A DNA stretch of 64,000 nucleotides from an uncultured Thermoleophilaceae bacterium (GTDB lineage Bacteria > Actinomycetota > Thermoleophilia > Solirubrobacterales > Thermoleophilaceae). The position numbers and the translations under genes were made by a program. The DNA is taken from the NCBI GenBank assembly GCA_963706635.1, contig OY970162.1, positions 479,696 through 543,695 of the forward strand, read 5' to 3'. A model generated the notes under the pieces. The model did no database searches, was not told the DNA's origin, and saw nothing but the letters and a program-made list of their open reading frames with translations. This document shows, one piece after another, positions 19,856 to 60,697 of the stretch (position 1 is its first letter; every line of letters begins with the position of its first letter).

Positions 19856-20468
19856 CTAGCTCGAAACCGTGGCCGGCCCGCGCTTGACGAGCCGCGCGAA
19901 CACCACGATCCTCTGGGCCGCGCTGTAGAGGGGGTGGCAGGCGCTCAGGACGAGGCGGTTGTAGCCAACCGTATGCAGGATCCAGGTGGCGTTGGGGTCG
20001 ACGATGCGCGGTCCGCTCGACCCTGTAGGTGAAGGTGCCCTAGGGCATGGCGAGGACGATCTTGTTGCCGCGCTTGAGGCCGTCGATGTGGCGGAAGGGC
20101 GCCCCGTGGGTGGTCCGGTGGCCGGCGATGGCGACCGTCCCGCGCTTGCCCGGCAGCGGCGTGTCGGGGTAGTGGCCGGGGCCCTTGCGAAGCGAGCCGC
20201 TGTCGGTGCCCTGGACCACGAAGGCGTTCTTGTGGATCGCCGGGAGCTCGATCTCGCCGATCGCGTGGCCCTTCAGGGGCTTGAAGTGGATCAGCCGATG
20301 GGCGCTCGGGGGAAGATCGCTGAGCTGCTTCTTGAGCTTGCCCTGCTGCTGGTCCTGCAGAAATGCGGAGACTGGTTCCTGCCAGGTCAGGGTAAGAGCG
20401 GCGTCGGCGATGAGCATGGCGCCGCTCAGCATCAGAACGGACGCGACGAACCGCAGCACCGCTCGCAT
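19856..20468 (-). pseudogene. sortase (transpeptidase), interrupted by in-frame TAG (20040-20042) and one frameshift (~20005)
   Basis: N-terminal [56 protein letters not shown][14 protein letters not shown], then shifted frame [40 protein letters not shown] (catalytic Cys context). Confidence 0.75.
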
Positions 20469-27383: not shown

Positions 27384-28568
27384 ATGCGGGAACTGGCGCC
27401 ACCGCTCGACGGTCTTCGCGTGCTCGATCTCTCCCGGGTGCTCGCCGGCCCCTACTGCACGATGCTGCTGGCGGACCTCGGCGCCGACGTGGTGAAGGTG
27501 GAGCGGCCGGGCAGCGGCGACGAGACGCGCGGCTGGGGTCCGCCCTTCGCCGGCGGGGAGTCGGCCTACTACCTGTCGGTCAACCGCAGCAAGCGCAGCT
27601 GCGCCATCGACCTCTCGCATCCCGACGGGCGCGCCCTCGCGCTGGATCTCTGCGCCGGGGCCGACGTGGTCGTGGAGAACTTCAGGCTCGGCGGCGCCGA
27701 CCGCCTGGGCGTGGGCTACGACCAGGTCGTGGAGCGCAACCCCGAGGTCGTCTACTGCTCCATATCCGGATTCGGGTCCGAGCGCCGGCCGCACGGACGG
27801 CCGGCGTACGACTTCGTCGCCCAGGCCGAGGCCGGCCTGATGTCGATCACCGGGCCGCCCGAGGGGCCCGCGTACAAGGTAGGCGTCGCGCTTGTGGACG
27901 TGCTCGCCGGCGTCCACGCGGCGGTCGGCGTGCTGGCCGCCGTCCAGGGCGGCGGCCCGCGGCGGATCGAGGTGCCGCTGCTCGACGCCGGACTCGCGGG
28001 GCTCGTGAACGTCGCGCAGAACGCTCTCGTCACTGGACACGATCCTGAGCGGCATGGCAACGCCCACCCCAACATCGTGCCCTACCAGGACTTTGCGACG
28101 GCCTCCGGCCGGATCGCGGTCGCGGCGCCCAACGACGGGCTGTTCGCCGACCTCTGCGCCGCCATAGGCCGACCTGAGCTCGCCGACGACGCGCGCTTCC
28201 GTACCAACGCCGATCGGGTCGAGAGCCGCGCCGAGCTGATCCCCGAGCTCGATGCCGTGTTCGCGACGCGCTCCGCCGACGAGTGGGTCCAGGTGCTGGA
28301 CGCGGCAGGCGTCCCGGTGGGCAAGGTCAGGACGGTGCCCGAGGCTCTCGACGCGGCAGCCGACGCGGGCCGCCCCGCCACCGTCCGCGTGCAGCACCTG
28401 ACCGCCGGCGCGCTCGAGCTGGTGGGCTCGCCGATCTGGGGTGCCGGCGCGCCCGCCACGCCGCCGCCGCTCCTCGGCGAGCACACGGCCGAGGTGCTGC
28501 GCGAGCTCGGCCGGAGCGAGAACGAGATCGTGGAGCTGTCGGTGCTCGGCGCGGTCCAGCTCGCCTAG
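27384..28568 (+). CDS. CoA-transferase family III (CaiB/BaiF-type)
   Basis: MRELAPPLDGLRVLDLSRVLAGPYCTMLLADLGADVVKVERPGSGDETRGWGPP. The stop TAG (28566-28568) is the first three bases of MITE copy 1. Confidence 0.9.
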   Translation: MRELAPPLDGLRVLDLSRVLAGPYCTMLLADLGADVVKVERPGSGDETRGWGPPFAGGESAYYLSVNRSKRSCAIDLSHPDGRALALDLCAGADVVVENFRLGGADRLGVGYDQVVERNPEVVYCSISGFGSERRPHGRPAYDFVAQAEAGLMSITGPPEGPAYKVGVALVDVLAGVHAAVGVLAAVQGGGPRRIEVPLLDAGLAGLVNVAQNALVTGHDPERHGNAHPNIVPYQDFATASGRIAVAAPNDGLFADLCAAIGRPELADDARFRTNADRVESRAELIPELDAVFATRSADEWVQVLDAAGVPVGKVRTVPEALDAAADAGRPATVRVQHLTAGALELVGSPIWGAGAPATPPPLLGEHTAEVLRELGRSENEIVELSVLGAVQLA

Positions 28569-28735
28569 ATGATTGATTCCGCGGTCGTGTGTGCGCGGGG
28601 GCGCACGGGGCCGAGCTGGGCGGGGGAAGCAGGGCGAAGCCGATACACGGGTGTATCGGCGAGCCCGATGACCCCGATCCAGCGACGGTATCCGTGCGTC
28701 ATCCGCGTGCGCGGGGTCGTGGAATCAGTCATCTA
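28566..28735 (+). mobile_element. MITE-like palindromic element, copy 1 (170 bp)
   Basis: TAGATGATTGATTCCGCGG...CGTGGAATCAGTCATCTA imperfect terminal inverted repeats. Internal hairpins GTGCGC-GGGG-GCGCAC and CCGATACAC-GG-GTGTATCGG. Near-identical to copies at 34379, 46841 (rc) and 59580 (rc). Confidence 0.85.
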
Positions 28736-29344: not shown

Positions 29345-29770
29345 ATGCTCACGCGAGTGACTCGGGCGGGGCTCATGGCATCGGTGGCCCTGATCGCGCT
29401 CTCGGGTTGCTCGCTCGGCGCGGACGACGAGAAGGGCAAGCCCGAGCCCGCCAGAGGGGCTGCCAAGCAGGTGGCGGCCACCGTCGGGGCGCTCGATCGA
29501 GCGGTTCGCGCGGGGCGCTGGCGGACGATCTGCGACCGCCTGTTCACGCCCGCCGCTCGCGAGCGCGCGGGGGGCAAGGACTGCGTCCGGCTCGTCCGCT
29601 CGTCCGCCGGAGACCTCCGCGGCGCCCGGATCGAGCTGGTGGGAATCGAGGTCGGCCAGCGCGGGGCCGAGGCGCGCGTGCGCACACAGGCGCGCGGACA
29701 GGCACCGCTCACGGACACGCTCACCCTGAGGCGGATGAGCGGGCGCTACCGGATCGAGTCGCTCCGCTAG
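29345..29770 (+). CDS. small lipoprotein, hypothetical
   Basis: 141 aa. Lipobox VALIALSGCS. No recognisable catalytic motif. Confidence 0.5.
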   Translation: MLTRVTRAGLMASVALIALSGCSLGADDEKGKPEPARGAAKQVAATVGALDRAVRAGRWRTICDRLFTPAARERAGGKDCVRLVRSSAGDLRGARIELVGIEVGQRGAEARVRTQARGQAPLTDTLTLRRMSGRYRIESLR

Positions 29771-29855
29771 ACCCCGTCCTTCGCCCGTTTCGCGGTCACG
29801 GATCCAACTAGGGCCGCTATAGGCAGCCCCAGATGGATCGGTGGCCCGATCACGG

Positions 29856-30806
29856 CTAGCTCAGCGCGCCTGCCAGCGCTTCCAGCGTCACGTCGAAGTC
29901 GGTCTTGGGCACAGCGCCGATGCACGGCGAGGTCGCGCCGGCGTCGCGGTAGCGGCGCACGGAGGCGGTCGCCTCCTCGGCGTCGCCGATCGCCCCGAGC
30001 ACCCCGAGGAACTCGTCGGAGACCGGCTTGCCTTCGTCCGCGCCGGCCACGTCGTCCGCGAAGCCCGAGCGCTCGAGCATCGCCCGGTAGAAGGGGAGGT
30101 GGAAGTAGGGGACGAGCTCCTGGCGCAGCTTGTCGCGGGCCTCGTCGGGCTCGCTCGTGACTGCCGAGGGCACAGCGGCGACGATGTCGAAGCCGTCGAG
30201 GTCCTTGCCCGCGCGCTCGCGTCCCTCGCTGACCGCTGGAACGACCACGTCGCGGACGTAGTTGGGGTTGCAGAGCCAGAGGACCACTCCGTCCGCGACC
30301 TCGCCTGCCAGCTTCAGCATCCCGGGGGAGAGACCGGCGATGTAGATCGGCAGGTCGCGGCGGGGCGGGTCGAAGCCCATGAAGTGGAAGCCGGAGCGGA
30401 AGCGCTCGCCCTGCGGCGGGTCCTCGCCGTGCATGATCGCGCGCACGATGCCGACGTACTCGCGCATCTCGCGCACGGGCTTCTCGATCTTGTCGTTGAA
30501 CCAGCCTTCGACCACCGGGCGGTGCGAGACCCCCAGCCCGAGCACGAGCCGGCCGCCCGAGAACTCGTCCGCGGTGGCGGCCGACATCGCGGTGGTGACC
30601 GGGTTGCGCGAGTAGATCGGCATCACGCCGGTCCCGAGCCGGACGCGCTCCGTGCGCGAGGCGTACGCCACCAGCGTGGTGAGCGAGTCGCGGCCGGCGA
30701 TGTGCGTTATGAAGACCGACTCGTAGCCCAGCCGCTCGGCGAGCTCGACGCGGTCGAGCGCGGTGTCGAGCGAGCGGCCAACCGAGATGAAGCAGCCGAG
30801 CCCCAA
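29856..30806 (-). CDS. LLM-class (luciferase-like) F420-dependent oxidoreductase
   Basis: 316 aa. LAERLGYESVFITHIAGRDSLTTLVAYASRTERVRLGTGVMPIYSRNPVTTAMSAATADEFSGGRLVLGLGVSH. Confidence 0.8.
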   Translation of the reverse strand: MGLGCFISVGRSLDTALDRVELAERLGYESVFITHIAGRDSLTTLVAYASRTERVRLGTGVMPIYSRNPVTTAMSAATADEFSGGRLVLGLGVSHRPVVEGWFNDKIEKPVREMREYVGIVRAIMHGEDPPQGERFRSGFHFMGFDPPRRDLPIYIAGLSPGMLKLAGEVADGVVLWLCNPNYVRDVVVPAVSEGRERAGKDLDGFDIVAAVPSAVTSEPDEARDKLRQELVPYFHLPFYRAMLERSGFADDVAGADEGKPVSDEFLGVLGAIGDAEEATASVRRYRDAGATSPCIGAVPKTDFDVTLEALAGALS

Positions 30807-30883
30807 GGCGGGGGAGCATACCTCCGCGGGGCTTCCAGCCCCGCGTCCTGAGACCGCCTCTCGGCGTCCGGCCTCGCGTAACC

Positions 30884-30903
30884 GGGTCGGCTTTCGCCGA
30901 CCC
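30884..30903. terminator. short hairpin at the GH5 gene 3' end
   Basis: gggtcggc-tttc-gccgaccc: 8-bp stem overlapping the stop codon. No U-tract. Confidence 0.3.
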
Positions 30904-32723
30904 TACCGCCGCAGCACGCGGACCGTCGTACGCCCGCGGCGGTAGCCGGCCTTGGAGGCGAGGACACGGCGGCTGCCGCGGCGGCCGAGCCGAAGGACCA
31001 GCGCCGCCCGACCGCGGCGGTTCGTCCTCACGCGGCGGCCGCCGAAGCGGATCAGCACGCGGCGCAGCGGGCGCCCGTGGCGCACGCTGGCCCGGAAGCG
31101 GAAGCGCGTCCGCACGCCGGCGACGACCCGCCGCGGCCGCACCCGTATCCGGATCCGGCTCGGGGGCGTGCGCGGCGCGCGGCAGTCGGCGCGCTTGTGG
31201 CCGCTCCCCGGCGTCAGCGTCACCTCGACCCGCCTGCGTCCGGTGCAGGTTCGGATGCGCAGCAGCCGCGCGCCCGCGGCGGAGAGGGCCTCGCCTCCCT
31301 TCACGCGCACGTCGTACCCGCCCGGGTAGCGGCGGGGGGAGGCGAAGATCTGCGTGTCGGCCCGGAAGGCGAACGAGCCGCCGCCCTTGCGGCCGGTCGA
31401 GTAGGCGAGCGTGAAGCGGTTCGAGCCCGGGTCGAAGCTCCAGCTCGACGGGACGCCCGCCACGGCCTGGGGATAGGGGCGGGAAAGGACCGCGAGCTTG
31501 TCGGCCTTGACGTTCGCTCCGGTGGGCGCCTTGCGCGCGTCGTTCACCACCGACTGCGTGCCGCCGCTCCCGGAGGTCGTGGGGTCGGCGCATCCGCAGT
31601 AGTGCCAGTAGAGCCAGCCCACCATGTGGTCGTCGGCCTCGCCCACGATCCGCCCGATCCTGGTGAGGTTGTCGGTGGCGCCGAACTCCGTCAACAGCGA
31701 CGCGTCGCCGGTGCGGTCCGACTGGGCGTTCGCGTTGTCGAAGGCGAGCTCCTCGAACGGCTTGCAGCTCGTCTCCTCACTGCCGCCGCCGGTGTCCGGC
31801 CCGGGTGCGTCGCCGGCCAGGCAGTAGACGTGGAAGCTCATCCCCGAGCGCGGCCCGATGTCGCCGTGATGGGTCTTCGGGCCGTAGTTGAAGAGGACGT
31901 TGGGCTCGTACCAGACGAGGCGCCGCGAGTCGACGCTGCGGATCTGCTTCGAGACGCGCTTCGAGAACGGTGTCAGCTTGCTCTGGTCGAACAGCGGGCA
32001 GCCCTCGGTGTTCGCGCATGTCTGCCAGCCAGTCCCCGGCCAGGGCTCGTTGAAGATGTCGTAGCCCATGTTGTAGGGCTCGGCGCGGAAGCGCTTGGCC
32101 ACGTAGCGCCAGGCCCCCGCGTAGCGGTCCTGGAGGCCCACGCCGCCGGGCCCGGCGTCGTTGTTCCAGAAGTGGTCGAACGCCCGGTTGAGGGCGGGCA
32201 TCCCTATGTAGTTGCCCGGGAAGCCGAGCTGGGGCTGGGCCGGGAGGCCGTCGTCCTGCACGGCCCAGTCGGGGAAGCCCTCGCCCTGGAAGCGCTCGTT
32301 GTAGAGGTCCTGGTGGAAGTCGAGGAGCGAGAAGACGTGCTGCCGCGCCAGCGTCCGCAGCGTCGACCGGATCTGCTCGAGATAGTGGTCGTCGTAGCCG
32401 CCCGGACGCGGCTCGACTCCCTTGTAGATGAGCCCGAGCCGGACCGCGTTCAGTCCTTCGCGTGAGAGGAAGCGCGCGTCGGGTCCGTCGAAGCCGGCCG
32501 CGAGGGGGTGGTAGGGCGGCTTCTTGTAGACCATGTTCACGCCGTGCAGGATCACGACGCGGCCCCTGGCGTCGGTGATCCAGCGCCCCGACTGGCTCAG
32601 CGGCGCGCTGGGCGCAGCGGCAGCCGGCCCCGCCAGAACGGCGGCTGCGGCGAGCGCCGCGACGATCCCGATCGGTCTCCTCAAGGGCTTGCGTAGTCTG
32701 CCGCCCCGTGCGCGCGAGGGCAA
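30903..32723 (-). CDS. secreted glycoside hydrolase family 5 (endoglycoceramidase/cellulase-like) with Arg-rich C-terminal module
   Basis: 606 aa. Signal IGIVAALAAAAVLAGPAAAAPS. VILHGVNMVYKKPPY, DFHQDLYNERFQGEGFPDWAV, catalytic YDIFNEPWPG. Start codon (TTG 32723) is uncertain. Confidence 0.8.
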   Translation of the reverse strand: MPSRARGGRLRKPLRRPIGIVAALAAAAVLAGPAAAAPSAPLSQSGRWITDARGRVVILHGVNMVYKKPPYHPLAAGFDGPDARFLSREGLNAVRLGLIYKGVEPRPGGYDDHYLEQIRSTLRTLARQHVFSLLDFHQDLYNERFQGEGFPDWAVQDDGLPAQPQLGFPGNYIGMPALNRAFDHFWNNDAGPGGVGLQDRYAGAWRYVAKRFRAEPYNMGYDIFNEPWPGTGWQTCANTEGCPLFDQSKLTPFSKRVSKQIRSVDSRRLVWYEPNVLFNYGPKTHHGDIGPRSGMSFHVYCLAGDAPGPDTGGGSEETSCKPFEELAFDNANAQSDRTGDASLLTEFGATDNLTRIGRIVGEADDHMVGWLYWHYCGCADPTTSGSGGTQSVVNDARKAPTGANVKADKLAVLSRPYPQAVAGVPSSWSFDPGSNRFTLAYSTGRKGGGSFAFRADTQIFASPRRYPGGYDVRVKGGEALSAAGARLLRIRTCTGRRRVEVTLTPGSGHKRADCRAPRTPPSRIRIRVRPRRVVAGVRTRFRFRASVRHGRPLRRVLIRFGGRRVRTNRRGRAALVLRLGRRGSRRVLASKAGYRRGRTTVRVLRR

Positions 32724-33292: not shown

Positions 33293-34381
33293 GTGCGAAG
33301 AGGCGTCAAGTCGGCGCTCGCGCAGGCCGATGCACTCCGTGAAGTGCGACTTGGCCTGAATTCCTCTGTGACCGCCTCCACCCGCCTCGGTGCGGTTGCC
33401 TCCCTGCTCGCCGCCGTAGGCGGGCTTCTCATCTGGACTCTCGACCCCGGAAGCGTGCGCTCGCCGCTCATCGCGGGTGCCGGGATAGCCGGGGCGGCGC
33501 TGGTCGGTGGGGCCTACGTGTTCCTCCCCTGGCAGCGGCTGCCCCGCCGGGCCATCCTCGTCCCCCTGGTCCTCCTGGGCGTGCCCGGCATCGCCATCGC
33601 CGCCTACAACACCGGCGGCATGTCCAGCCCTTACACCTACTACTTCGTCTTCATCCCGTTCACGGCGGCGCTGATCGCGACCCGCTGGGAGTTGACCCTC
33701 TCCGTGGCCGCCTGCACGCTCGGGGCCGCGGCCCCGCTCGCCTATGACGGGGCGCCCACCTCGAACGTCGTCCTGCTCCTCTTCCTCGTCACGATCTCCG
33801 GCGCCACGGGGATCGTCTTCCACCGCTCCCAGGAGCACGTCCGCGCGAGCGATGCCCGCCTGCGCGACATGGCCCTTCGCGACTCCCTCACGAACGTGGC
33901 CAACCGCCGCGCGCTCGAGGTGCTCGCGGCCAACGTGCTGCTCGCGGCGGCGCGCGACGACCGCAGCCTCAGCGTCTGTTACCTGGACGTCGATCACTTC
34001 AAGGAGGTCAACGACACCTTCGGCCACGCCGTGGGCGATCGCGTCCTCAAGGCCCTGGCGCGCAGCACCAAGAAGGTACTTCGAGACGGCGACCTCGTCG
34101 GCCGGCTCGGCGGCGACGAGTTCGCGGTCGTGCTGCCCGGTGCAGGGTCCGACCAGGGCCGCGTCGTCGCCGACCGTCTCGCCTCGGCCTTCGCTGACGA
34201 GGTCGAGGCGGACAGGGGCCTGCCGGCGGTCACCGTCAGCGTGGGCCGGGCCACCTTCCCGCGCGACGGCCGCAACTGGGAGGAGCTCCTCCACGCGGCC
34301 GACGGGCGGCTCCTGAAGCTCAAGCAGACGCGGGAAGCGGACGAGCTGACCGTCGCAGTGCTGGGCCCGAGCGCGGCCTAG
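33293..34381 (+). CDS. membrane-anchored diguanylate cyclase (GGDEF)
   Basis: 362 aa. About 5-6 N-terminal TM helices. RDSLTNVANRRAL...YLDVDHFKEVNDTFGHAVGD...RLGGDEFAVVL. The stop TAG belongs to MITE copy 2. Confidence 0.9.
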   Translation: MRRGVKSALAQADALREVRLGLNSSVTASTRLGAVASLLAAVGGLLIWTLDPGSVRSPLIAGAGIAGAALVGGAYVFLPWQRLPRRAILVPLVLLGVPGIAIAAYNTGGMSSPYTYYFVFIPFTAALIATRWELTLSVAACTLGAAAPLAYDGAPTSNVVLLLFLVTISGATGIVFHRSQEHVRASDARLRDMALRDSLTNVANRRALEVLAANVLLAAARDDRSLSVCYLDVDHFKEVNDTFGHAVGDRVLKALARSTKKVLRDGDLVGRLGGDEFAVVLPGAGSDQGRVVADRLASAFADEVEADRGLPAVTVSVGRATFPRDGRNWEELLHAADGRLLKLKQTREADELTVAVLGPSAA

Positions 34382-34548
34382 ATGATTGATTCCGCGGCCG
34401 CGTGTGCGCGGGGGCGCACGGGACCGAGCTGGGCGGGGGAAGCAGGGCGAAGCCGATACACGGGTGTATCGGCGAGCCCGATGACCCCGATCCAGCGACG
34501 GTAACCGTGCGTCATCCGTGTACCCGGGGTCGTGGAATCAGTCATCTA
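34379..34548 (+). mobile_element. MITE-like palindromic element, copy 2 (170 bp)
   Basis: Same orientation as copy 1. Differs by a handful of substitutions. Confidence 0.85.
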
Positions 34549-34550: not shown

Positions 34551-34697
34551 CTAGTAGCGAAGCAGGACCAGCACCAGCGCGACGGCGAAGGCGATCTGGC
34601 CGACGCCGAGCGCGACGCCGAGGTTGGCGGCGCCCGCGAGCTCCGCCACCCCGGTCGCCGCCGCGAACACGGCGAGGAGCGCCGCGGCCTTCTTCAT
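34551..34697 (-). CDS. 48-aa hydrophobic micro-protein (not in ORF track), translationally coupled to meaB
   Basis: Own translation: MKKAAALLAVFAAATGVAELAGAANLGVALGVGQIAFAVALVLVLLRY. Its ATG overlaps the meaB stop (ATGA at 34694-34697). Ends 3 nt from MITE copy 2. Confidence 0.45.
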   Translation of the reverse strand: MKKAAALLAVFAAATGVAELAGAANLGVALGVGQIAFAVALVLVLLRY

Positions 34698-45701: not shown

Positions 45702-46559
45702 ATGGTCCGAATGGGTGTGAATCGACCCATCGACGTAATGCACCTCGGGCGCGACCGGGTGATCTGCGCCTACGACGTGGGCGGCGCGATCGTCGACCCC
45801 GGACCGACCACCACGGTCGACACCCTCCTCGACGCCCTCGAGGGCATGGAGCCGCGGGCGCTGATGCTCACCCACATCCACCTGGACCACGCGGGCGCTG
45901 CCGGCGTGCTCTGCCGGCGGTTCCCCGGGCTCGTGGTCTACGTGCACGAGAGCGGCGCCCCGCATCTGGTCGATCCGAGCAAGCTGCTCGAGAGCGCGGA
46001 GCGGCTCTACGGCGACGACATGGACCGGCTCTGGGGTGAGGTGGCGCCGGTCCCCGAGGAGCGGATCCGGCCGCTGACCGGGGGAGAGGAGGTCGAGGGC
46101 TTCAAGGTGGCCTATACGCCCGGCCACGCCTCCCACCACGTCTCCTACCTGCATGTGGACAGCGGCGACGTCTACGTTGGCGACACGGCCGGCGTCCGCA
46201 TCCCGCCGCACGCGCACACGGTCGCGCCCACGCCGCCGCCCGACATCGACATCGAGGCCTGGCTCGACTCCCTCCAGACGATCGCAAGGTGGAACCCGCT
46301 GGCACTCTGGCTGACCCATTTCGGCCGGGTCACCGACGTGGAGGACCAGCTCCACCGGGTGCGCGTATCCCTTGTGGAGCACGCCGACATGGCCCGCCGC
46401 GGGGGCGAGGAGGACTTCGTCCGCGCCTTCGACAGGGAGGTCCGGGACGCCACGGACGCCGAGGCCGCCGAGCGCTTCGTGCAGGCCGTGCCCCCCGAGC
46501 AGGCCTTCCAGGGCCTCGAGCGCTACTGGCGCAAGCGCTCCGAGGCCGCCGTCGTATGA
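45702..46559 (+). CDS. MBL-fold metallo-hydrolase
   Basis: 285 aa. LTHIHLDHAGAAG (HxHxDH). Its stop overlaps the clpS ATG (ATGA). Confidence 0.8.
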   Translation: MVRMGVNRPIDVMHLGRDRVICAYDVGGAIVDPGPTTTVDTLLDALEGMEPRALMLTHIHLDHAGAAGVLCRRFPGLVVYVHESGAPHLVDPSKLLESAERLYGDDMDRLWGEVAPVPEERIRPLTGGEEVEGFKVAYTPGHASHHVSYLHVDSGDVYVGDTAGVRIPPHAHTVAPTPPPDIDIEAWLDSLQTIARWNPLALWLTHFGRVTDVEDQLHRVRVSLVEHADMARRGGEEDFVRAFDREVRDATDAEAAERFVQAVPPEQAFQGLERYWRKRSEAAVV

Positions 46560-46843
46560 GCTCGACCGTTGAGCTGCCGAAGACGACCGACCCCGGCAGC
46601 GGACTCGGGGGCGAGTGGCGAGTCATCGTGCTCAACGACGACCACAACACGTTCGAGGGCGTTGCCCGCGCCCTCTCGGCGACGCTGCCGGGTGTCAGCT
46701 ACGACCAGGGCATGTCGCTGGCCAACAAGATCCACAACAGCGGCCAGGCGATCGTCTGGACCGGCGCGCGGGAGCCCGCCGAGCTCTACTGGGAGCAGCT
46801 CCGGGGCACCGGCCTGACCATGGCGCCGCTGGAGCGCGGCTAG
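46556..46843 (+). CDS. clpS: ATP-dependent Clp protease adaptor ClpS
   Basis: 95 aa. WRVIVLNDDHNTFEGVARALSATLPGVSYDQGMSLANKIHNSGQAIV. The stop TAG is the first triplet of MITE copy 3. Confidence 0.85.
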   Translation: MSSTVELPKTTDPGSGLGGEWRVIVLNDDHNTFEGVARALSATLPGVSYDQGMSLANKIHNSGQAIVWTGAREPAELYWEQLRGTGLTMAPLERG

Positions 46844-47009
46844 ATGACTGATTCCACGACCCCGCGTACGCGGATGACGCACGGATACCGTCGCTGGATC
46901 GGGGTCATCGGGCTCGCCGATAACCCGTGTATCGGCTTCGCCCTGCTTCCCCCGCCCAGCTCGGTCCCGTGCGCCCCCGCGCACACGCGGCCGCGGAATC
47001 AATCATCTA
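46841..47009 (-). mobile_element. MITE-like palindromic element, copy 3 (169 bp, opposite orientation)
   Basis: TAGATGACTGATTCCACG...CCGCGGAATCAATCATCTA. One-nt deletion in the central hairpin relative to the other copies. Confidence 0.85.
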
Positions 47010-47327
47010 GGGAGCGGCGGGGGCTTCGAGGGTGGCGCCGCTGCCCACGATCTCGTGGAACGTCGGCAGCAGCGGCACCTGGTAGTAGCCGCTGAGCTCC
47101 GTGCGCGCCTCCGCCACCGTCTCGGAGTACCAGTAGCGCTCGAAGTCGGCCTTGGCCGGGAAGACCGCGTGCTGGATGAAGTCGAGCCGTCCCTCGCTCG
47201 CGCGGTAGAAGGCCCACGAGGTGGCGCCGTAGTCGAGCGCCGCCTCCGCGACCGGGAGCCAGCCCTCGGCGAACTTGTCGCCCCGGAACGGGTTGGCCGC
47301 CCAGCGGACCTCCGCCAGGATCGGCAT
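47007..47327 (-). CDS. hypothetical 106-aa protein translationally coupled to ccr
   Basis: MPILAEVRWAANPFRGDKFAEGWLPVAEAALDYGATSWAFYRASEGRLDFIQHAVFPAKADFERYWYSETV... Its ATG overlaps the ccr stop (ATGA at 47325-47329). Its stop is the terminal CTA of MITE copy 3. Confidence 0.6.
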   Translation of the reverse strand: MPILAEVRWAANPFRGDKFAEGWLPVAEAALDYGATSWAFYRASEGRLDFIQHAVFPAKADFERYWYSETVAEARTELSGYYQVPLLPTFHEIVGSGATLEAPAAP

Positions 47328-48583
47328 CAGTCGCCCACCTCGGCGTAGATGGCGCCCGGGCCCTCCTCGTTCTTGCCGAGCCCCTCCTTGTCGGCGCCCA
47401 CGAGGATCGCGATCTTGCCCAGGTGCTGGTTGTCGCGCATCAGCTGGTGCGCCTCGGCGACGCCGTCGAACGGCATCGTCCGCCACAGGACGGGCCGGAT
47501 CTTGGACTGCTCGATCAGCTCGTTGGCCTTCATGCACTCGTAGGCGTTGGCGAAGTGCGAGCCGATGATCTGCTTCTGGCGCATCCACAGGTAGCGGACG
47601 TCGAAGTCCAGGTTGTAGCCCGTGGTGCCGGCGCAGATGACGACCTTCCCGAACGGCTTGACCACGAACACCGAGGTGGGGAAGGTGGCCTGGCCGACGT
47701 GCTCGAAGACGATGTCGGGCTGGTCCCCGAGGATCTCCTTGACCCGCTTCTGGAACGCGCGCGAGACCTTGAAGCGCTCCTTCTCCTCGTCGGGCGACTC
47801 GCCGCCCTTGCGCATCATCCCAGCAAATTCGCCCCGGTCGATGTAGTCGACAGCCCCGAGCTGCTTGACGAGCTCGCCCTTCTCTGCGGAGGAGACGACC
47901 CCGACCGCCTCGGCGCCGGTGATCGCGCAGAGCTGGGTGGCGAACACGCCGAGCCCGCCGGCGGCGCCCCAGATCAGGACCTTGTTCCCCGCCTGCAGGT
48001 CGCACTGGTCGACCAGCATGCGGTACGCGGTGAAGTAGACGAGCCCGTAGGAGGCCGCCTCCTCCCAGGTCAGGTTCTGGGGGCGGGGGATGAGCTGCTG
48101 GGCCTGGACCTTGGTGAACTGCGCGAACGAGCCCCAGGTGGTCTCGTAGCCCCAGATCTTCTGGGACGGAGCCGCGAGCGGATCGAGGCCGTGGACCTCG
48201 GGGTCCTCGTAGGAGGCCTGGTTGCAGTGGATGACCACCTCGTCGCCGGGCTTCCAGCGGGTCACGCCCTCGCCGACCTTCCAGACGACACCGGAGGCAT
48301 CGGAGCCGCCGATGTGGTGGCCGTACTCGGGGTGGTCGCCGTAGCGCCACACGCCCACGGGCTCGCCGAGAGCCGCCCAGACGTTGTTGTAGTTCACGCC
48401 CGCGGCCATCACGCGCACGATCACCTCGAAGGCGCCGGGCTCGGGCACCTCCATCTCCTCGAGCTGGAACGCGTCCCTGGGCTCGCCCTCGCGGTCCTCG
48501 CGGATCACCCAGGCGGCCATCGTGTCCGGCAGCGTGCCGGGCTCGACATCCAGCTCGAAAACCTTGCTCACGTCAACGGCCAT
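47327..48583 (-). CDS. ccr: crotonyl-CoA carboxylase/reductase
   Basis: 418 aa from the ATG at 48583, preceded by GGAGG. MAAGVNYNNVWAALGEPV..HIGGSDASGVVWKVGEGVTRWKPGDEVVIHCN..WGYETTWGSFAQFTKVQAQQL..GAAGGLG. Confidence 0.9.
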   Translation of the reverse strand: MAVDVSKVFELDVEPGTLPDTMAAWVIREDREGEPRDAFQLEEMEVPEPGAFEVIVRVMAAGVNYNNVWAALGEPVGVWRYGDHPEYGHHIGGSDASGVVWKVGEGVTRWKPGDEVVIHCNQASYEDPEVHGLDPLAAPSQKIWGYETTWGSFAQFTKVQAQQLIPRPQNLTWEEAASYGLVYFTAYRMLVDQCDLQAGNKVLIWGAAGGLGVFATQLCAITGAEAVGVVSSAEKGELVKQLGAVDYIDRGEFAGMMRKGGESPDEEKERFKVSRAFQKRVKEILGDQPDIVFEHVGQATFPTSVFVVKPFGKVVICAGTTGYNLDFDVRYLWMRQKQIIGSHFANAYECMKANELIEQSKIRPVLWRTMPFDGVAEAHQLMRDNQHLGKIAILVGADKEGLGKNEEGPGAIYAEVGD

Positions 48584-48623: not shown

Positions 48624-49583
48624 GTGTCGTTGCTCGAGAGGCTGGGCGTTGAGCTGCCGGTGGTGCAGGCCGGGATGGGCGGGGGGCTCGCCCGCCACGA
48701 GCTGGCGGCGGCCGTCTCGGAGGCCGGCGGCCTCGGCACGATCGGCATCCTCGACCCGCCGCTCCTGCGGCGTGAGCTGAGCGCCGCCCGGGCCGCCACG
48801 AGTAAGCCCGTGGCCGTGAACCTGCTGCTGCCGTTCACCCGCCGCGGACACCTCGAGCTGGCGGCCGAGGCGGACGTCGTGGTCACGTTCTGGGGCGCGC
48901 CCCAGCGGCCGACCGGACGCCCCTGGCTGCACCAGTGCGGCTCGCTGGAGGAGGCGCTCGACGCCCATGCGGCCGGAGCGGACGGAGTGATCGTGCAGGG
49001 GGTCGAGGCCGGAGGCCACGTCCGCGGCGCGGGGCCAGGGCTCGAGCTGCTCGAGCGCGCCCGAGCCGCCCTGCCGGACGGCTACCCGGTGTGGTCGGCC
49101 GGTGGCGTCGCCGATGCGACCGACGCCCGCACGGCGCTGGAGGCGGGCGCGGAGGCGGTCGTGGCGGGAACGCGCTTCCTGCTCAGCGACGAGAGCCGGG
49201 CCCACCCGGAGTACAAGCGCAGGGCGCTGGCGGGTCGCGAGACCCTGTTGACCGAGCTGTTCGGCGCCGGCTGGCCGGCGCTCCATCGCGTGCTCCCCAA
49301 CGCCGCCACCGAGCGCTGGCTCTCCGCGGACGGGGCGATGCCCGGCTGGATCGGGGCGCTCCATCGGGCCGCCTCGCCGCTGCTCGCGCGCACGCCGCAG
49401 AGCATGCACGCGCGGGCGGCGCCCTACGCGCGCCCCTCGCAGCCGCTCCTGAGTCCCCAGGCCGCGAATGACGACGGTCCCGAGTCGCTGGTCGAGGCGG
49501 GACCGCTCTACGCGGGCGAGACGGTGGCCAGAATCGACTCGCTGAGGCCGGCCGGGGCCCTTACGCGCGAGCTCGCCGGCTAG
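48624..49583 (+). CDS. nitronate monooxygenase / NPD-family FMN oxidoreductase (FabK-like)
   Basis: LLERLGVELPVVQAGMGGGLARHELAAAVSEAGGLGTIG ... VIVQGVEAGGH. Start is GTG 48624 or TTG 48630. Confidence 0.8.
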   Translation: MSLLERLGVELPVVQAGMGGGLARHELAAAVSEAGGLGTIGILDPPLLRRELSAARAATSKPVAVNLLLPFTRRGHLELAAEADVVVTFWGAPQRPTGRPWLHQCGSLEEALDAHAAGADGVIVQGVEAGGHVRGAGPGLELLERARAALPDGYPVWSAGGVADATDARTALEAGAEAVVAGTRFLLSDESRAHPEYKRRALAGRETLLTELFGAGWPALHRVLPNAATERWLSADGAMPGWIGALHRAASPLLARTPQSMHARAAPYARPSQPLLSPQAANDDGPESLVEAGPLYAGETVARIDSLRPAGALTRELAG

Positions 49584-51115
49584 GCGACCTCGGGTGTCGG
49601 CGTCGGCGCCCGAGTGGGAGCGATGCGGCCGATGAAGACCGCCGCGACGCCCGCGCCCAGGAGCGCCACGCCGGCCGAGAGCCACATGCCGCTCGAGAGG
49701 GCGTGGACGAACGCCTCCTTGGCGGCGGCCGCGGTCTGAGGATCGACGTTCGACAGCCCGCCCGAGCCGAGGTTGTGGACCAGGTCGTCGCGCTGCGCCG
49801 CGGTCACCCCGCTGCCGGCCAGGAGCTCGGCGAGCTTGCTCGCGGCGAGATGCTGGAACAGCGCCCCGATCGCCGCGACCCCGAAGGTGCCGCCGACCAT
49901 CCGGCTCATCGACAGGATCCCGGAGGCGACGCCCGCCTTGTCCTCGCGCACCGAGTTCATGGCGGCCGTGGACATCGGCGACATGACGAGCGCCATGCCG
50001 AGCCCCATCAGCACGAAGGAGGGCAGCAGCAGCGCGTAGCCCGTGCCGACGTCGATGCGCGTCTGGAGGAAGAGCGCCGTCCCGACCAGGAGCAGCCCGA
50101 CGACCATCGGCGGCCGCGGGCCGACGCGGTCGGCGAGCCTGCCGGCGAGGGGCGCGACCACGACGATCATCAGCGTCGAGGGCAGGAAGCGCACGCCGGC
50201 CTGGATCGGGCTGTAGCCGAGGATGTTCTGCATGTAGAGCGCCATGAAGAAGAACATCGCGAGCATCGCGAACGAGACGATGAAGGCCACGATGTTCGCG
50301 CCCAGGAAGGTGCGCGAGCGGAAGAAGCTGAAGTCGACCATCGGCTCCTCGACGCGCGGCTCGAGTGCGAAGAAGCCGCCGATGCCGACGACGGCGGTCA
50401 CGAGCAGGGCGACGATCTCGGTCGAGCCCCAGCCCCACGAGTTGCCCTCGACGAGCGCCAGCACGAGGGCCGTCAGCCCCGCCGAGAGCGTCGCAATGCC
50501 CGGCCAGTCGACGCGGTGGCGGGTGGACTCGTCGCGGGACTCGCGAGCGGCGTAGAGGGTGACGACGACGGCGCCGGCCGCGACCGGAAGGTTGAGGAAG
50601 AAGATCGAACGCCAGGAGACGTACTCGGTCAGCGCCCCGCCGAGGACCGGGCCGATGGCGAGCGCCAGGGCCGACACCCCCGCCCAGGTCCCGATCGCCT
50701 TGCCCCGCTCCTCGGGCGGGAAGGTGTTGGAGATGATCGAGAGGGTGCCGGGCATCATGAACGCGGCGCCGATGCCCTGGACGGCACGGCCGGCCACGAG
50801 CCAGCCCTGATCGGGCGCCAGGCCTATGGCCGCGCTCGAGAGCGCGAAGACGACGACGCCCGACAGGAACATCCGCCGGCGGCCGAAGATGTCGCCGAGC
50901 CGTCCGCCGGTCACGAGCAGCACGGCGAAGGTCAGCGTGTAGGCGTTCACCGTCCACTCGAGGGCCGACAGCGAGGCGCCCAGGTCGTCCTCGATCGAGG
51001 GCAGCGCCACGTTCACGACGGTGTTGTCGAGCATGATCATGAACAGGGCGAAGCACATGGCGCCGAGGGTCCACCAGCGCCGGTTCTGCTCGTTGAGTCG
51101 GAGGCGATCGGTCAT
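49580..51115 (-). CDS. MFS transporter, DHA2 (EmrB/QacA-like, 14-TMS) family
   Basis: The ATG at 51115 overlaps the MarR stop (ATGA). MLDNTVVNVALPSIEDDLGASLSALEWTVNAYTLTFAVLLVTGGRLGDIFGRRRMF. Confidence 0.9.
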   Translation of the reverse strand: MTDRLRLNEQNRRWWTLGAMCFALFMIMLDNTVVNVALPSIEDDLGASLSALEWTVNAYTLTFAVLLVTGGRLGDIFGRRRMFLSGVVVFALSSAAIGLAPDQGWLVAGRAVQGIGAAFMMPGTLSIISNTFPPEERGKAIGTWAGVSALALAIGPVLGGALTEYVSWRSIFFLNLPVAAGAVVVTLYAARESRDESTRHRVDWPGIATLSAGLTALVLALVEGNSWGWGSTEIVALLVTAVVGIGGFFALEPRVEEPMVDFSFFRSRTFLGANIVAFIVSFAMLAMFFFMALYMQNILGYSPIQAGVRFLPSTLMIVVVAPLAGRLADRVGPRPPMVVGLLLVGTALFLQTRIDVGTGYALLLPSFVLMGLGMALVMSPMSTAAMNSVREDKAGVASGILSMSRMVGGTFGVAAIGALFQHLAASKLAELLAGSGVTAAQRDDLVHNLGSGGLSNVDPQTAAAAKEAFVHALSSGMWLSAGVALLGAGVAAVFIGRIAPTRAPTPTPEVA

Positions 51116-52443: not shown

Positions 52444-53735
52444 ATGGAAGCAGCGACCCCCCTCAGACAGGCCCACGTAACCACCGCCGGCGACCGGCTC
52501 GACGATCCACGACCTGAGCGTCGAGGACGAGGCCGCCGCGCGGCTCGTCCGCGAGCGGGAGCAGTCCGGCGACGACCCGGTCAAGACCGTCGCCGACGCG
52601 ATCGAGATCGGCGCCCGCGTGCTCGACCGCGAGCAGGCCGCCGCCAACGCGGAGTACGTGCGCACGGAGTTCGAGAAGACCGCGCAGGAGATCGACCGCC
52701 AGTTCTCCGACAAGGCGCGCACGGTCGCCGAGCACTTCGGCAAGAAGGTCGACGAGGTCTTCGGCGAGGAGAGCGGCCAGCTCGCCAAGGAGTTCGAGAA
52801 GCTGTTCTCCGACGGCAGCACGGCGTCGGTGCAGAACCGGGTGCGCGAGCTCGTTGGCGAGGCCATGACCAAGTCGCGCGAGGACCTCGTGCGCCAGTTC
52901 TCGGCCGGCGACGGCCGCAACCCGCTCGCCGATTTCAAGGCCAGCACGGTTCGCGAGCTGCGCATCATGGCCGACCGGCTCCAGCAGATGCAGGAGCAGG
53001 TTGTCGAGCTGCGCGCCGAGAAGGAGAAGCTGGAGGAGCTCGACGCCGAGCGCGAGCGCGGCAGCGCCAAGGGGCGCTCGTTCGAGGAGGAGGTGGCCGA
53101 GGCGGTCGACGCGATCGCGCTGGCGCAGGGCGACGTCGCGGATGCGGTGGGCGATCTCAAGGGCGCCACCGGCAAGACCGGCGACGTCGTCGTCTCCATC
53201 GACGCCTGCAACGGACCCGCGCGCGGCCGCATCGTGTTCGAGGCCAAGAACGCCAAGCTCAGCTCACCCGAGACGCGCAGGGAGCTCGCCCGCGGGATGC
53301 GCGAGCGCGACGCCGACTACGGCGGTGCTCGTCGTGCCCGCCGAGGAGAAGGTGCCGGCCAAGCTCACGCAGCTGCGCGAGTACGAGGGCGACAAGCTCG
53401 TGGTCGTCCACGATCCCGAGGACGGCCGCGCCCTCGCGCTGGAGCTCGGCTACCGACTGGCCCGTGCGCGCGTGCTGATGAAGAGCGCGGGCGCCGAGGG
53501 CGTCGACGCCGGAGCGGTACGCGAGGCCGTCGAGCGGGCCCTCGCCGAGATCGAGGACGTTCGCAAGGTCAAGAGCCAGCTCACCGGGGCCAAGACCGGC
53601 ATCGACAACGCCTACGAGATCGTCGAGGGGATCGCCGAGCGCGTGCGCGCCCGCCTGGCCGAGGTGGAGATGCTCGCTGCGGGCGGCCAGGCCGGCGGAG
53701 CTGGACGTAGACGACGACCCCGCATACGCGGGTGA
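52444..53735 (+). CDS. coiled-coil protein with C-terminal PD-(D/E)xK nuclease-like domain (DUF2130-like); two apparent frameshifts (~52505, ~53320)
   Basis: Long coiled coil (ELRAEKEKLEELDAERERGSAKGRSFEEEVAEAV). GKTGDVVVSID...GRIVFEAKNAK...DADYAVLVVPAEEKVP. The 3' end lies inside degenerate MITE copy 5. Confidence 0.5.
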
Positions 53736-53839
53736 CGCACCGGCTGGATCGGGTCACGGGCTCGCCGATAACCGCGATCGGCTTCGCCGCTCCCCGCCAG
53801 CTCGGTCCCGTGCCCCCGCGCACACGCGGCGCGGATCTA
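53708..53839 (-). mobile_element. MITE-like element, copy 5: short (about 132 bp) diverged variant
   Basis: TAGACGACGACCCCGCATACGCGGGTGACGCACCGG...GCACACGCGGCGCGGATCTA aligns with copies 3 and 4. It lacks about 9-10 nt of the outer TIR at both ends and has internal indels. Confidence 0.65.
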
Positions 53840-53846: not shown

Positions 53847-54285
53847 CTACGGCAGCAGACCGGTTGTTGGAGTCGCGCCGCGCGTTCGTGATGTTGAGCT
53901 TGGCCGGCGCGATCTCCTTGGGCACCGCGACCGACGAGCCGGCACGCACCTCGTACTGACCGCGCGGCAGCGTCTTCTGGATCGTCGCCGTGTCCTCGGG
54001 CTGGACCGGGCCGATGCGCTCCTTCACGGTGTCGCCCTCGAGCGTCACGGTGTGCGCCTCGTCGGTCTGGTTCGAGATCGTGATCAGCACCGGTCCGGCG
54101 CCTACCTTGTTCGGCGAGACAGTGACCTTCTCCGTCTGTATCACCCCGGTCAGCTCGATCGGCACCGGGGGCCGGGGTTTGTTCTCGAAATCTTCCCCGC
54201 CGCAACCAGACGCCAGAGCCACAAGCGTCCCTGCCGCGAGGAAGGCGATGGCACCCGACCAGCGAGTCTTCCCTGTCGCCTTCAT
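53847..54285 (-). CDS. lipoprotein, possibly cupredoxin-like beta-sandwich (apparent frameshift near the 3' end)
   Basis: MKATGKTRWSGAIAFLAAGTLVALASGCGG lipobox. VTVSPNKVGAGPVLITISNQTDEAHTVTLEG..LPRGQYEV. In the given frame it reads through into the MITE. A 1-nt shift gives ...SNNGLLP-stop at 53847. Confidence 0.5.
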
Positions 54286-59273: not shown

Positions 59274-59582
59274 GTGGCGCGCGTCGCGCTGCTCTGTCCC
59301 GACCTGCTGTTCGGCTCGAAGCTCCGTAGCGCGCTCGCCGACGGCGGGCACGAGGTGGTCGCGCCGGGCTCGCCGGCCGACCTGCTGGTGGTGGATCTCA
59401 CCGCCGACGTCGACGAGCGCCTCGCCGAGGCCGGCGCGGCCGGCCTGCCCACGCTCGCCTTCTACTCGCACGTCGAGCAGGACGTGCGCCGCAAGGCGGA
59501 GGAGGCGGGCATCGACCGCGTCGTGCCCCGCTCGCGCATGGCCCGCGAGGCGGCCGCGCTGGTCGACGGCATGCTCGCCTAG
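59274..59582 (+). CDS. hypothetical 102-aa protein (flavodoxin/receiver-like alpha/beta pattern)
   Basis: GTG start 4 nt after the upstream stop. VALLCPDLLFGSKLRSAL..DLLVVDLTADVDERL..PTLAFYSHVEQDV. The stop TAG belongs to MITE copy 4. Confidence 0.45.
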   Translation: MARVALLCPDLLFGSKLRSALADGGHEVVAPGSPADLLVVDLTADVDERLAEAGAAGLPTLAFYSHVEQDVRRKAEEAGIDRVVPRSRMAREAAALVDGMLA

Positions 59583-59749
59583 ATGACTGATTCCACGACC
59601 CCGCATACGCGGATGACGCACGGATACCGTCGCTGGATCGGGGTCATCGGGCTCGCCGATACGCCCGTGTATCGGCGTCGCCCTGCTTCCCCCGCCCAGC
59701 TCGGTCCCGTGCGCCCCCGCGCACACGCGGCCGCGGAATCAATCATCTA
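59580..59749 (-). mobile_element. MITE-like palindromic element, copy 4 (170 bp, same orientation as copy 3)
   Basis: TAGATGACTGATTCCACGACCCCGCATACGCGG...GCGGCCGCGGAATCAATCATCTA. Confidence 0.85.
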
Positions 59750-60697
59750 GCGAGCGACGCTGAAGTCGAAGGCGCGGTCGACGTCCGGCTTGCGCTCGAG
59801 GATCCCGAAGCGCGCGTCCCATGCCGCCCACTCGTCGAGCACGCGACGATGGAGCACCAGCGGCGGGCTGAAGGCGGGGGAGACCGCGGCGAGCTGTGCC
59901 CGGACGAGGCCCTCGTCGGAGTTGCCCGCGCGGGCGATGTCGCGGATCGCCGGATCCGGATGGCGCAGCGACCTCGCGCACGCCGTCGGCCACCGCCGCC
60001 ACCACCGCGTCGATCGCCGCCCGGCGCCGCTTCAGGATCTTGCGCGTCGTGAACAGGACCACCTCCGGATAGCGCGGAGCGCCGTAGTCGTCGACGCGGA
60101 ACTCGCGTGTCTGCACTCCGCGCCGCCGCAGAACGACTCCCTCCGCGTTCCAGAAGGCCGGCACTCCCTGCACGCGCCGGTCGATCAGGCTGGGTACCGC
60201 GCAGAAGCCGATCGTGACCAGGTGGGCGCGCTTCACGTCGCCGCCGTCGTCCTGCATCACGGCCCGGAGCACGGCCGGGTCGGAGGGCAGGCCGGAGACG
60301 CCTACGCGGCGGCCCTCGAGATCGCGCGGGCGGCGTATGTCGTCGCGGGCGATGATCGCGGCCAGCGGGCGTTGCACGAGCGCGCCCACGCCGACGAAGT
60401 CACGCCCGCGCTCGCGCGCCAGGCCGAGGTCGTGGATGTCGAGCACGGCCATGTCGGCGCGCCCGCCGGCAAGCAGCTTGAGCGAGTCGGGCGCGGAGCC
60501 CGGGGGGCGGATCCGCAGTCGGATCCCGTGCCTGCGGTCGTAGCCCTTGCGGACGGCCGCGTAGATGGGGGCGTGCACGGCGTTGGGCTTGAAGTCGAGC
60601 GCGAGCGTGATCCGCTGGTCGCCGCTGCCGCCGCCCCCGCCGCAGCCGCCGCCAGGAGGGCCGCCAGCAGCGGAACAAGGGCAGGGGCGCGCCGCAC
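59747..60697 (-). CDS. NMT1/THI5-like ABC-type substrate-binding lipoprotein (two apparent frameshifts ~59965 and ~60650)
   Basis: GTG 60697. Signal RRAPALVPLLAALLA, then (shift) GCGGGGG lipobox region. ITLALDFKPNAVHAPIYAAVRKGYDRRHGIRLRIRPPG. The C-terminal 70 aa (..AIRDIARAGNSDEGLVRAQL..DFSVAR-stop) lie in another frame and end on the MITE CTA. Confidence 0.65.

Follow-up and report, generated by a model that had tools for sequence, protein, structure and literature searches.

Why should a non-coding repeat occupy, almost to the nucleotide, the space between two convergent genes, and do so several times within a short distance? The question is raised by a stretch of 64,000 nt from an uncultured Thermoleophilaceae bacterium (assembly GCA_963706635.1, contig OY970162.1, positions 479,696–543,695 of the forward strand), which we call the window at its full length and whose G+C content is 71.9%. 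Five copies of a hairpin-forming repeat lie in the window, and the original prediction, noting that genes on either side end on the boundaries of the repeat, offered two reasons for this arrangement: insertion directed to TA dinucleotides, of which stop codons were thought to be the main source, or retention of the repeat because its hairpin acts as a compact bidirectional terminator. Our analysis indicates that the repeat is a non-coding MITE, a miniature transposable element with inverted repeats, and that its targeting of CTAG sites that fall on stop codons, rather than a built-in terminator role, very probably provides the best explanation of its flush position.

Anatomy of the repeat and its probable partner insertion sequence

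Repeat search and alignment recovered four full copies, two in each orientation and 92–98% identical to one another, together with a decayed fifth copy (Table 1), which is probably immobile because both of its terminal repeats are shortened and have lost their TGA stops. Each full copy reads C-TA-GATGAyTGATTCC...GGAATCArTCATC-TA-G. The terminal inverted repeats have the consensus 5′-GATGAyTGATTCC(G/A)CG(G/A), and all four full copies carry GATGATTGATTCC at one end and the reverse complement, GATGACTGATTCC, at the other. The element end TAGATGATTGA (TAG-A-TGA-T-TGA) gives every frame a stop codon (+1, +5 and +9 relative to the boundary), and does so on both sides; therefore, any open reading frame (ORF) that reads into the element must end there. 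The body of ∼166 bp is non-coding and forms an imperfect palindrome across its whole length, and the whole element folds as a single stem of about 70–80 bp (∼68–70 pairs in the minimum-energy folds). The two strands have fold energies of −94.7 and −130.6 kcal/mol and z-scores of −8 and −13.6, respectively. As a MITE should be, the repeat is small, non-coding, dispersed and multicopy; five copies lie in 64 kb, and dozens occupy unrelated sites in related genomes. Rfam gave no match in the window at gathering thresholds, and permissive settings returned only chance-level matches (E > 5).

The wider family was collected by searching the 19-mer TAGATGATTGATTCCGCGG in GTDB, with one genome per species. 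It is present in 104 stretches, nearly all of them from metagenome-assembled genomes (MAGs) of Solirubrobacterales or other Thermoleophilia, plus Paraconexibacter antarcticus; these loci belong to genomes other than that of the window, to which their best identity is 82–89%. The MAG MFD02840.bin.1.2 is rich in copies. Elements with the same ends fall into size classes of ∼50–80 nt, 160–210 nt, a few intermediates and ∼990–1020 bp. The 1-kb form has perfect terminal repeats of 17–19 nt and TA on both flanks (loci L018, L063, L092, L094 and others), and the ends of the MITE equal the 17–19-nt ends of this insertion sequence (IS) of related Solirubrobacterales genomes. In P. antarcticus (L018), the 1-kb form contains a single ORF of 295 aa (L018:3223–4110), whose product matches Pfam DDE_Tnp_1 and finds its best match in the NCBIfam IS982 model NF033520 (122.5 bits, E = 2e-35, model positions 1–240 of 243); otherwise, only IS982, IS5 and IS4 models were matched. 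The length of 990–1020 bp, the single 295-aa ORF and the DDE_Tnp_1 domain all agree with the IS982 family, and we label the partner IS982-like because its score narrowly misses the curated cut-off. Because the same ends bracket this coding element, the window repeat is a MITE with a likely IS982-like partner, whose DDE transposase would move it in trans. The passage from one form to the other is illustrated by a 163-nt copy (L056:4376–4538), which retains the first transposase codons (MDADLNLLLT) and is therefore regarded as an internal-deletion derivative of the IS. It represents the same insertion as a 266-nt copy in a closely related MAG (L003:3366–3631); the left flanks are 96% identical over 700 nt, the DNA on the other side is different, and this is the only flank shared between species.

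Short non-coding derivatives that share only the terminal repeats with a ∼1-kb partner encoding a DDE transposase of ∼295 aa have a parallel in the IS982 family, namely the ISCca4-derived MITE of Cardinium (PMC9769881, PMC7335449). The elements described here differ from that family in several respects. Their ends are GA...TC, whereas 5′-AC ends are conserved in the family; their flanks bear a 2-bp TA and CTAG is the preferred target, whereas the family review gives direct repeats of variable length (0–8 bp) and lists no preference for TA or CTAG (PMC7335449); the score of their transposase against the hidden Markov model is below the cut-off; their hosts are Solirubrobacterales; and the MITE is a hairpin over its whole length.

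Two further kinds of locus carry the same ends. Ultra-short derivatives, in which two terminal repeats stand back to back, occur at L087 (reverse complement, 6619), L084, L053 and L077, for example TAGATGATTGATTCCGCGGAATCAGTCATC (∼28 nt); at this length, double-stranded DNA is unable to loop, so that their mode of movement, if any, is in question. At other loci (L008, L076 and L103; and L017, L024, L035 and L075), the 19-nt end precedes two other conserved internal sequences, for which a second end was not found within 1.4 kb, and which may be further, longer elements using the same terminal repeat.

Target site and stop codons

Target sites were reconstructed over 71 family copies. TA is present on both sides in 59 of them, and the bases outside TA vary. 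The 59 reconstructed targets comprise CTAG (43), GTAG (6), CTAA (4), TTAG (2), TTAT (2), CTAT (1) and CTAC (1), and the base beside TA is C in 85% of half-sites. A 4-bp duplication of CTAG was considered and ruled out: all 16 non-CTAG cases have unlike outer bases on the two sides, and the inner G and C are constant, so the duplication comprises the 2 bp TA. We infer that insertion takes place at TA, which is duplicated in the process, with a preference for the palindrome C-TA-G. In the window, the target reconstructed for copy 1 is CTAA, and the L003 orthologue of the 200-aa gene beside this copy ends at the same position, with CTA followed by A, in agreement with CTAA. The site of copy 2 is GGCCTAGCCTAG, the first of two adjacent CTAGs, and the empty site of copy 3 is GGCTAGGG, in which one CTAG is common to both stops.

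Because of the TA duplication and the CTAG preference, a parent in the IS630/Tc1-mariner superfamily was first assumed. IS630 is described as transposing preferentially to TA in 5′-CTAG-3′ (Tenzen and Ohtsubo 1991, as cited in PMC2170065), and ISY100 duplicates TA (PMC2170065). This parentage was dropped when the 1-kb relatives proved IS982-like, and we consider it very improbable: the only coding elements with these terminal repeats encode a DDE_Tnp_1/IS982-like protein rather than a transposase of the IS630 type, and no IS630-like partner was seen. As the transposase superfamily differs, the IS630-like target preference may have originated independently, and the elements would represent an IS982-like lineage with a target that the family review does not list.

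The background for these sites was 858 kb of clade DNA, with 358 free CTAG sites and 7518 TA dinucleotides outside element copies. Stop codons are not the main source of TA, as they account for only 3.6% of the TA dinucleotides, 74% of which are intragenic. The free CTAG sites are distributed differently: a predicted stop coincides with 28% of them and two overlapping stops with 1.7%, 21% are intragenic and 51% intergenic, and within the window itself 42% of them lie on predicted stops. The idea of TA-directed insertion was therefore right in essence, but the target is not TA in general, and, as shown by the comparisons below, targeting alone is insufficient for the accumulation of copies at gene ends.

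We propose that the flush position arises as follows. In this genome of 72% G+C, CTAG is rare, and a large share of its occurrences are TAG stops. As the first base of the element is G and the last is C, its insertion rebuilds a TAG or TAA stop as TA plus G on the left and C plus TA (TAG on the opposite strand) on the right, and the flanking proteins are unchanged. Convergent genes that shared one CTAG as overlapping stops would be pushed apart, each retaining its stop, and the element would become the whole intergenic space; any other incoming frame meets the TGA-T-TGA of the terminal repeat and ends within three codons. Insertions inside genes or promoter regions would be lost by selection, and the survivors would accumulate at 3′ ends. 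The combination of a CTAG/TA target, TAG-rebuilding termini and three-frame stops would thus give a mechanistic reason why the repeat seems ‘designed' for convergent gaps, and it cautions against inferring function from position alone.

Neighbour genes in the other genomes were called around 51 MITE copies with a purpose-written codon-usage gene finder trained on DNA of this clade. Sixty-five of these genes have their 3′ end facing the element: 35 stop on the TA-derived TAG, 4 at +5 and 2 at +9; a further 2 stop at other positions within the element, and the remaining 22 end upstream of it. The +1 TAG is used by 35 of the 41 genes that end on terminal-repeat stops, compared with an expectation of one third (p = 9e-12). 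This preference bears on the suspicion that the coincidence of stops is an artefact of ORF calling, since ends with stops at +1, +5 and +9 on both sides would close any ORF, and 6 of the 41 gene ends do lie at +5 or +9. The frame is, however, far from random, the flanking genes are real, as judged from complete Pfam domains and positive codon-usage scores, and their orthologues end at the same residue. We rejected the artefact for the window copies and regard it as scarcely credible.

The association with stop codons exceeds what the availability of CTAG would provide. At least one stop codon is abutted by 30 of the 51 copies (59%), compared with 28% of free CTAG sites (p = 5e-6), and five copies abut two; stop sites are over-used 2-fold and shared-stop sites 6–10-fold. 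Intragenic copies are absent (0 of 55), whereas 21% of free CTAG sites are intragenic (p = 1.5e-5). CTAG preference explains much of the stop association but not all of it, and the excess over CTAG availability points to an additional contribution from the loss of harmful insertions. For the full-length IS, 5 of 12 gene ends lie at +1, and for the 50–80-nt mini copies 9 of 17. As these size classes share the association, it belongs to the ends and the transposase and not to the internal hairpin.

For the window copies, an ORF check confirmed that the left-hand plus-strand genes end on the first TAG of all four full copies (Table 1), and the boundary TA is part of the stop codon for seven of the eight gene ends that adjoin these copies. 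The corresponding claim for the right-hand minus-strand genes, that they end on the last CTA, is correct as it stands for copies 1 and 3. For copy 4 it holds only if a frame change in the NMT1-like gene is accepted, which is reasonable because codon-usage scores shift frame near 59940–59980 and the last ∼70 codons then lead to the boundary CTA; without the frame change, the uninterrupted ORF ends at TCA 59739–59741, inside the terminal repeat. The right-hand end at 34551, beyond copy 2, is that of a 48-aa ORF, as predicted. The one placed at 53847, beyond copy 5, was not borne out: in the sequence as it stands, the gene there, a lipoprotein-like ORF on the minus strand, has no stop in its coding frame at that point, and this frame crosses the decayed copy and continues to 53581. 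On the left of copy 5, the TAG at 53708 is indeed out of frame, and the coding frame of the plus-strand gene ends at the TGA at 53733–53735 inside the copy.

The element had been described as donating stop codons to its flanks. As the CTAG target held the stop before insertion, and the terminal G or C only completes it, ‘restores' is mostly the more accurate word; real donation, through a TGA at +5 or +9 or through a non-C target, concerns ∼7 of 41 gene ends. It matters for the annotation of MAGs from high-GC Actinomycetota that gene ends beside these repeats are real and unaltered.

Complete Pfam domains in the genes flanking the window copies include CoA-transferase III, GGDEF, ClpS, MeaB-like and NMT1-like, and the Ccr-like protein to the right of copy 3 bears an extra C-terminal ABM-like domain of ∼106 aa. 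The MeaB-like gene overlaps the 48-aa ORF at 34694–34697, where ATGA combines a stop and a start codon. Besides the NMT1-like gene, the reading frame changes in mid-gene in the Ccr-like gene (47327), and possibly in the 608-aa ORF at 29767–31593 (region 29767–32555) and in the gene to the right of copy 5 near 53850–53870. These breaks, which affect any statement on exact gene ends, suggest indel errors of the long-read assembly, or pseudogenes. A protein search with a 447-aa ORF gave many fragmentary hits, since this ORF is a frameshifted fusion of two frames.

Table 1. Coordinates of the MITE copies, the genes that flank them, an unoccupied target site and hairpin repeats with other ends. Positions are those of the window unless a locus handle (L) is given; for MITE copies 1–4, the strand is the one that carries strand A, the better-folding strand.
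Feature	Position	Strand	Details
MITE copy 1	28566–28735	+	TA 28566–28567; body 28568–28733 (166 bp); TA 28734–28735
Copy 1 left, CoA-transferase gene	28566–28568	+	Stop TAG
Copy 1 right, 200-aa gene	28733–28735	−	Stop CTA
MITE copy 2	34379–34548	+	TA 34379–34380; body 34381–34546; TA 34547–34548
Copy 2 left, GGDEF gene	34379–34381	+	Stop TAG
Copy 2 right, 48-aa ORF	34551–34553	−	CTA, 2 nt past right TA; ORF downstream of and overlapping MeaB-like gene
MITE copy 3	46841–47009	−	TA 46841–46842; body 46843–47007; TA 47008–47009
Copy 3 left, ClpS	46841–46843	+	Stop TAG
Copy 3 right, Ccr-like dehydrogenase	47007–47009	−	Stop CTA; gene split by frame break
Unoccupied CTAG	49580–49583		Shared stop of convergent genes 48624–49583 (+) and 49580–51115 (−)
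MITE copy 5 (decayed)	53708–53839		132 nt, minus strand; 8–9 nt gone from each terminal repeat, TGA stops included
MITE copy 4	59580–59749	−	TA 59580–59581; body 59582–59747; TA 59748–59749
Copy 4 left, 102-aa ORF	59580–59582	+	Stop TAG
Copy 4 right, NMT1-like gene	59747–59749	−	CTA, if frame change accepted
Other-ended hairpin repeat	L139:4800–4905		
Other-ended hairpin repeat	L141 (same)		
Other-ended hairpin repeat	L150:1627–1730		
Other-ended hairpin repeat	L168:4445–4549		
Other-ended hairpin repeat	L139:2880–3010	−	
Other-ended hairpin repeat	L038:7400–7560		

Gene orientation, orthologous junctions and the terminator question

The claim that every copy lies between convergent genes is true of the five copies in the window, but it does not describe the family. 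Among the 51 copies elsewhere, 19 (37%) are in convergent, 27 (53%) in co-directional and 5 (10%) in divergent contexts; a high-confidence subset, counted separately, contains 12, 16 and 3, respectively. Background gene pairs are 17% convergent (119 of 708), 66% co-directional and 17% divergent, and the convergent contexts of the element are thus in 2.2-fold excess (Fisher p = 0.001). Most of this excess follows from the targeting of stop codons, since a convergent partner lies opposite 34% of all gene 3′ ends. Of the 30 copies that abut a stop codon, 16 are in convergent contexts, compared with this expectation (p = 0.03). Abutting a stop codon, and not convergence, is therefore the general rule of the family.

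These figures can also be read in another way, according to which the element is retained as a bidirectional terminator or 3′-end module, and selection for function rather than targeting sets its position. The convergent excess, including that among stop-abutting copies, speaks for this view, as does a hairpin that is very stable on both strands (about −95 and −131 kcal/mol), with base pairs that covary and G·U pairs that are retained on one strand across subfamilies; the orientation bias of 17 versus 5 in co-directional contexts suggests in addition that the two orientations differ in their effects on transcripts. However, most copies elsewhere do not lie between convergent genes, most of the convergent excess is explained by stop-codon targeting alone, and where the flanking genes run in the same direction, the better-folding strand is mostly their antisense strand. 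A promoter and terminator scan of positions 46000–48000, around copy 3, found no terminator-like site and no promoter, and no T-run follows the hairpin on either strand, so that it lacks the U-tract of an intrinsic terminator (U-tract-less terminators aside). Given further that the full-length IS and the mini copies share the stop association, and that insertions are conserved neither between species nor at the orthologous junctions described below, retention as a terminator is not required to account for the position and has no support as its cause, and we consider it unlikely. RNA-level effects of the hairpin are possible.

The ancestral state was approached through the junction that copy 3 occupies. 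When metagenomes were scanned with the Ccr-like protein, 80 loci were recovered, with orthologues that are 81–88% identical, and in ∼55 of them ClpS is the convergent neighbour. At all such loci, the window included, ClpS has the C-terminus ...LE(Q/R)G followed by the stop, and the Ccr-like homologues end at the same position as the window gene. As these orthologues, which have no element beside them, end at the same residues, the stop that contains the boundary TA predates the insertion, and truncation or extension of the ClpS or the Ccr-like gene by the insertion is ruled out. The junction itself is variable: the two genes overlap by 29 nt in the closest relatives and by 44, 58 or 4 nt elsewhere, or they lie from 0 to >1000 nt apart. 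At L125 and L163, a single CTAG serves both stops and is identical to the reconstructed empty site of copy 3 (GGC-TAG-GG), and 7 of the 119 background convergent pairs likewise share one CTAG, including the window pair at 49580–49583. As the nearest orthologous junctions overlap by 29 nt and not by 4 nt, the window lineage had a different junction before the insertion. No element was found at the ∼55 orthologous ClpS/Ccr-like junctions, and insertion sites are not shared between species apart from the left flank of L003 and L056; the copies are thus recent arrivals.

Several points weigh against the interpretation of the repeat as a CTAG-targeted MITE with an IS982-like partner. The transposase score of 122.5 bits lies below the NCBI cut-off for IS982 of 130, and the conserved 5′-AC end of that family is absent, the ends being GATGATT...AATCATC (TAGATG... 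counting TA). No transposase of the IS982-like kind lies in the window, and no sampled genome has both an intact IS and a 166-bp MITE bearing the exact 19-mer. No filled and empty pair of sites at near-identical flanks was found, and the evidence for TA duplication comes from flanks and orthologues. The convergence of all five window copies departs from the 37% of the family (p ∼0.007), and small numbers are the only explanation that we can offer. The neighbour calls are those of a simple codon-usage finder, and many of the loci come from long-read MAGs with apparent frameshifts. Finally, the hairpin has a strand-asymmetric G·U content, which a plain DDE cut-and-paste model does not predict.

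Among known elements, the Correia elements (CREE/NEMIS) of Neisseria come close in several features, as they are MITEs of ∼100–155 bp with terminal repeats, TA duplication and long hairpins, and are co-transcribed with their neighbours; no autonomous partner is known for them. They differ in host and in sequence, and they are known for promoters and an IHF site and not for placement at stop codons. SPRITE, bcr1 and QMITE elements (PMC3184786, PMC5896051) are unrelated in sequence and belong to low-GC hosts; the QMITEs of Coxiella overlap the last 1–50 bp of genes (PMC5896051), but none of the three is reported to target a stop codon or to carry three-frame stops. Each trait of the present element has a precedent, in IS982-derived MITEs, in the TA/CTAG target of IS630, in the TAG-supplying termini of repetitive extragenic palindromes (REPs) and in the gene-end overlap of QMITEs. 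The combination of an IS982-like partner, a CTAG target, TAG-rebuilding termini and three-frame stops in Solirubrobacterales is apparently undescribed: no literature was found on Solirubrobacterales together with MITE, and stop codons, IS982 and Actinobacteria all go unmentioned in a 2024 review of prokaryotic MITEs.

Strand asymmetry of the hairpin and related repeats

One strand of the element, starting with GATGATTGATTCCGCGG, folds better than its complement in 41 of 43 copies, with a mean advantage of 28.5 kcal/mol, and these 41 asymmetric copies span at least seven subfamilies and many species. The better-folding strand has ∼10 G·U pairs in its minimum-energy fold, compared with ∼1 on the complement. 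When the two arms of 18 representatives were aligned with each other, 146 transition mismatches were G·T on the better-folding strand and 35 on the other, although these counts are not fully independent because wobble positions recur. The subfamilies diverge internally, yet pairing is preserved by double changes, for example in the apical stem. RNAalifold recovered the hairpin only partly from an alignment of all subfamilies, because these align poorly, and per-copy folds were used instead. In co-directional contexts, the weaker-folding strand is the mRNA sense strand in 17 of 22 copies (p = 0.017); such a bias would agree with counter-selection of very strong hairpins within operons. No explanation fits both the G·U asymmetry and the antisense placement of the better-folding strand.

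G·T-rich stems and compensatory changes have been taken as signs of RNA-level function in REPs (PMC3733652) and in bcr1, the RNA structure of which is kept by compensatory changes (PMC3184786). We put forward, as a tentative and rather doubtful suggestion, that the whole-length hairpin is under strand-specific selection and is not a mere by-product of inverted ends. If so, one defined strand would act in single-stranded form. It could do so as an RNA 3′-end module that makes insertions benign, with a stop in every frame and a hairpin, or as a single-stranded DNA intermediate that allows very short elements (to ∼50, possibly 28 bp) to be moved by a DDE transposase. The asymmetric hairpin may thus serve as a lead on the movement of very short MITEs or on their effects on transcripts.

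A single-stranded intermediate, which the strand-specific G·U content would fit, is also the basis of a different proposal, namely that the element is a repeat of the REP/REPIN type moved by a REP-associated tyrosine transposase (RAYT, of the Y1 type), with its terminal TAG taking the place of the GTAG tag of REPs. GTAG REPs often provide the ORFs beside them with a TAG stop, are mainly situated between ORFs that are co-directional or convergent, and have stems with frequent G·T pairing (Di Nocera et al. 2013, PMC3733652). The element does not conform to the definition given there, as its 166 bp are far above the 20–40 bp of REPs, and as it has TA on both flanks and true terminal inverted repeats that it shares with a DDE insertion sequence, whereas REPs are without terminal inverted repeats or target duplication. 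It also has no 5′ GTAG or CGTC tag, and no RAYT gene was seen, though no genome-wide search for RAYT genes was made. Taken together, these differences make a REP origin extremely improbable, and mobilization by an IS982-like DDE transposase remains the preferred reading.

The purine-rich central module of the element (AGGACGCAGGGCGAAG-hairpin-GAGCGAnnGAGGACGCC) recurs in hairpin repeats with quite different ends (TGA...TCA), which we count as further evidence for the suggested strand-specific selection. These repeats, bounded by TGAGACGGGCGTGGACC...GGTCCACGCCCGTCTCA or by TGATGTTGGAGGGCC...GGCCATTGGACATCA (Table 1), share the central module CAAGCnGGGCnAGGACGCAGnGAGCGAAG, a stem-loop and then GAGCGAnnGAGGACGnCGCC, and the module is common to them and to some subfamilies of the window MITE. 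Three of them occupy the same ClpS/Ccr-like junction, where their terminal TCA is the ClpS stop codon. At one junction of this kind, on a metagenome contig (L168:4307–4450), four different perfect palindromes of ∼36–40 nt, with a 4-nt loop, stand in tandem before the hairpin repeat. ‘Stop-capped' hairpin repeats may thus be a wider habit in high-GC Actinomycetota.

Other repeats in the window are distinct from the MITE. Diverged direct repeats of 71–84% identity (families D1, D3, D4, D8 and D9) occur at 4978–5357, 6726–7247 and 11557–11942, and they may be paralogous or internally repetitive genes. At 19700–19870 lies an intergenic stretch of lower G+C content with three of the rare CTAG sites, a fourth being located at 20040, and a perfect 18-bp hairpin, unrelated to the MITE, is formed by 19740–19757 and 19762–19779 just after a TTGACA-like motif.

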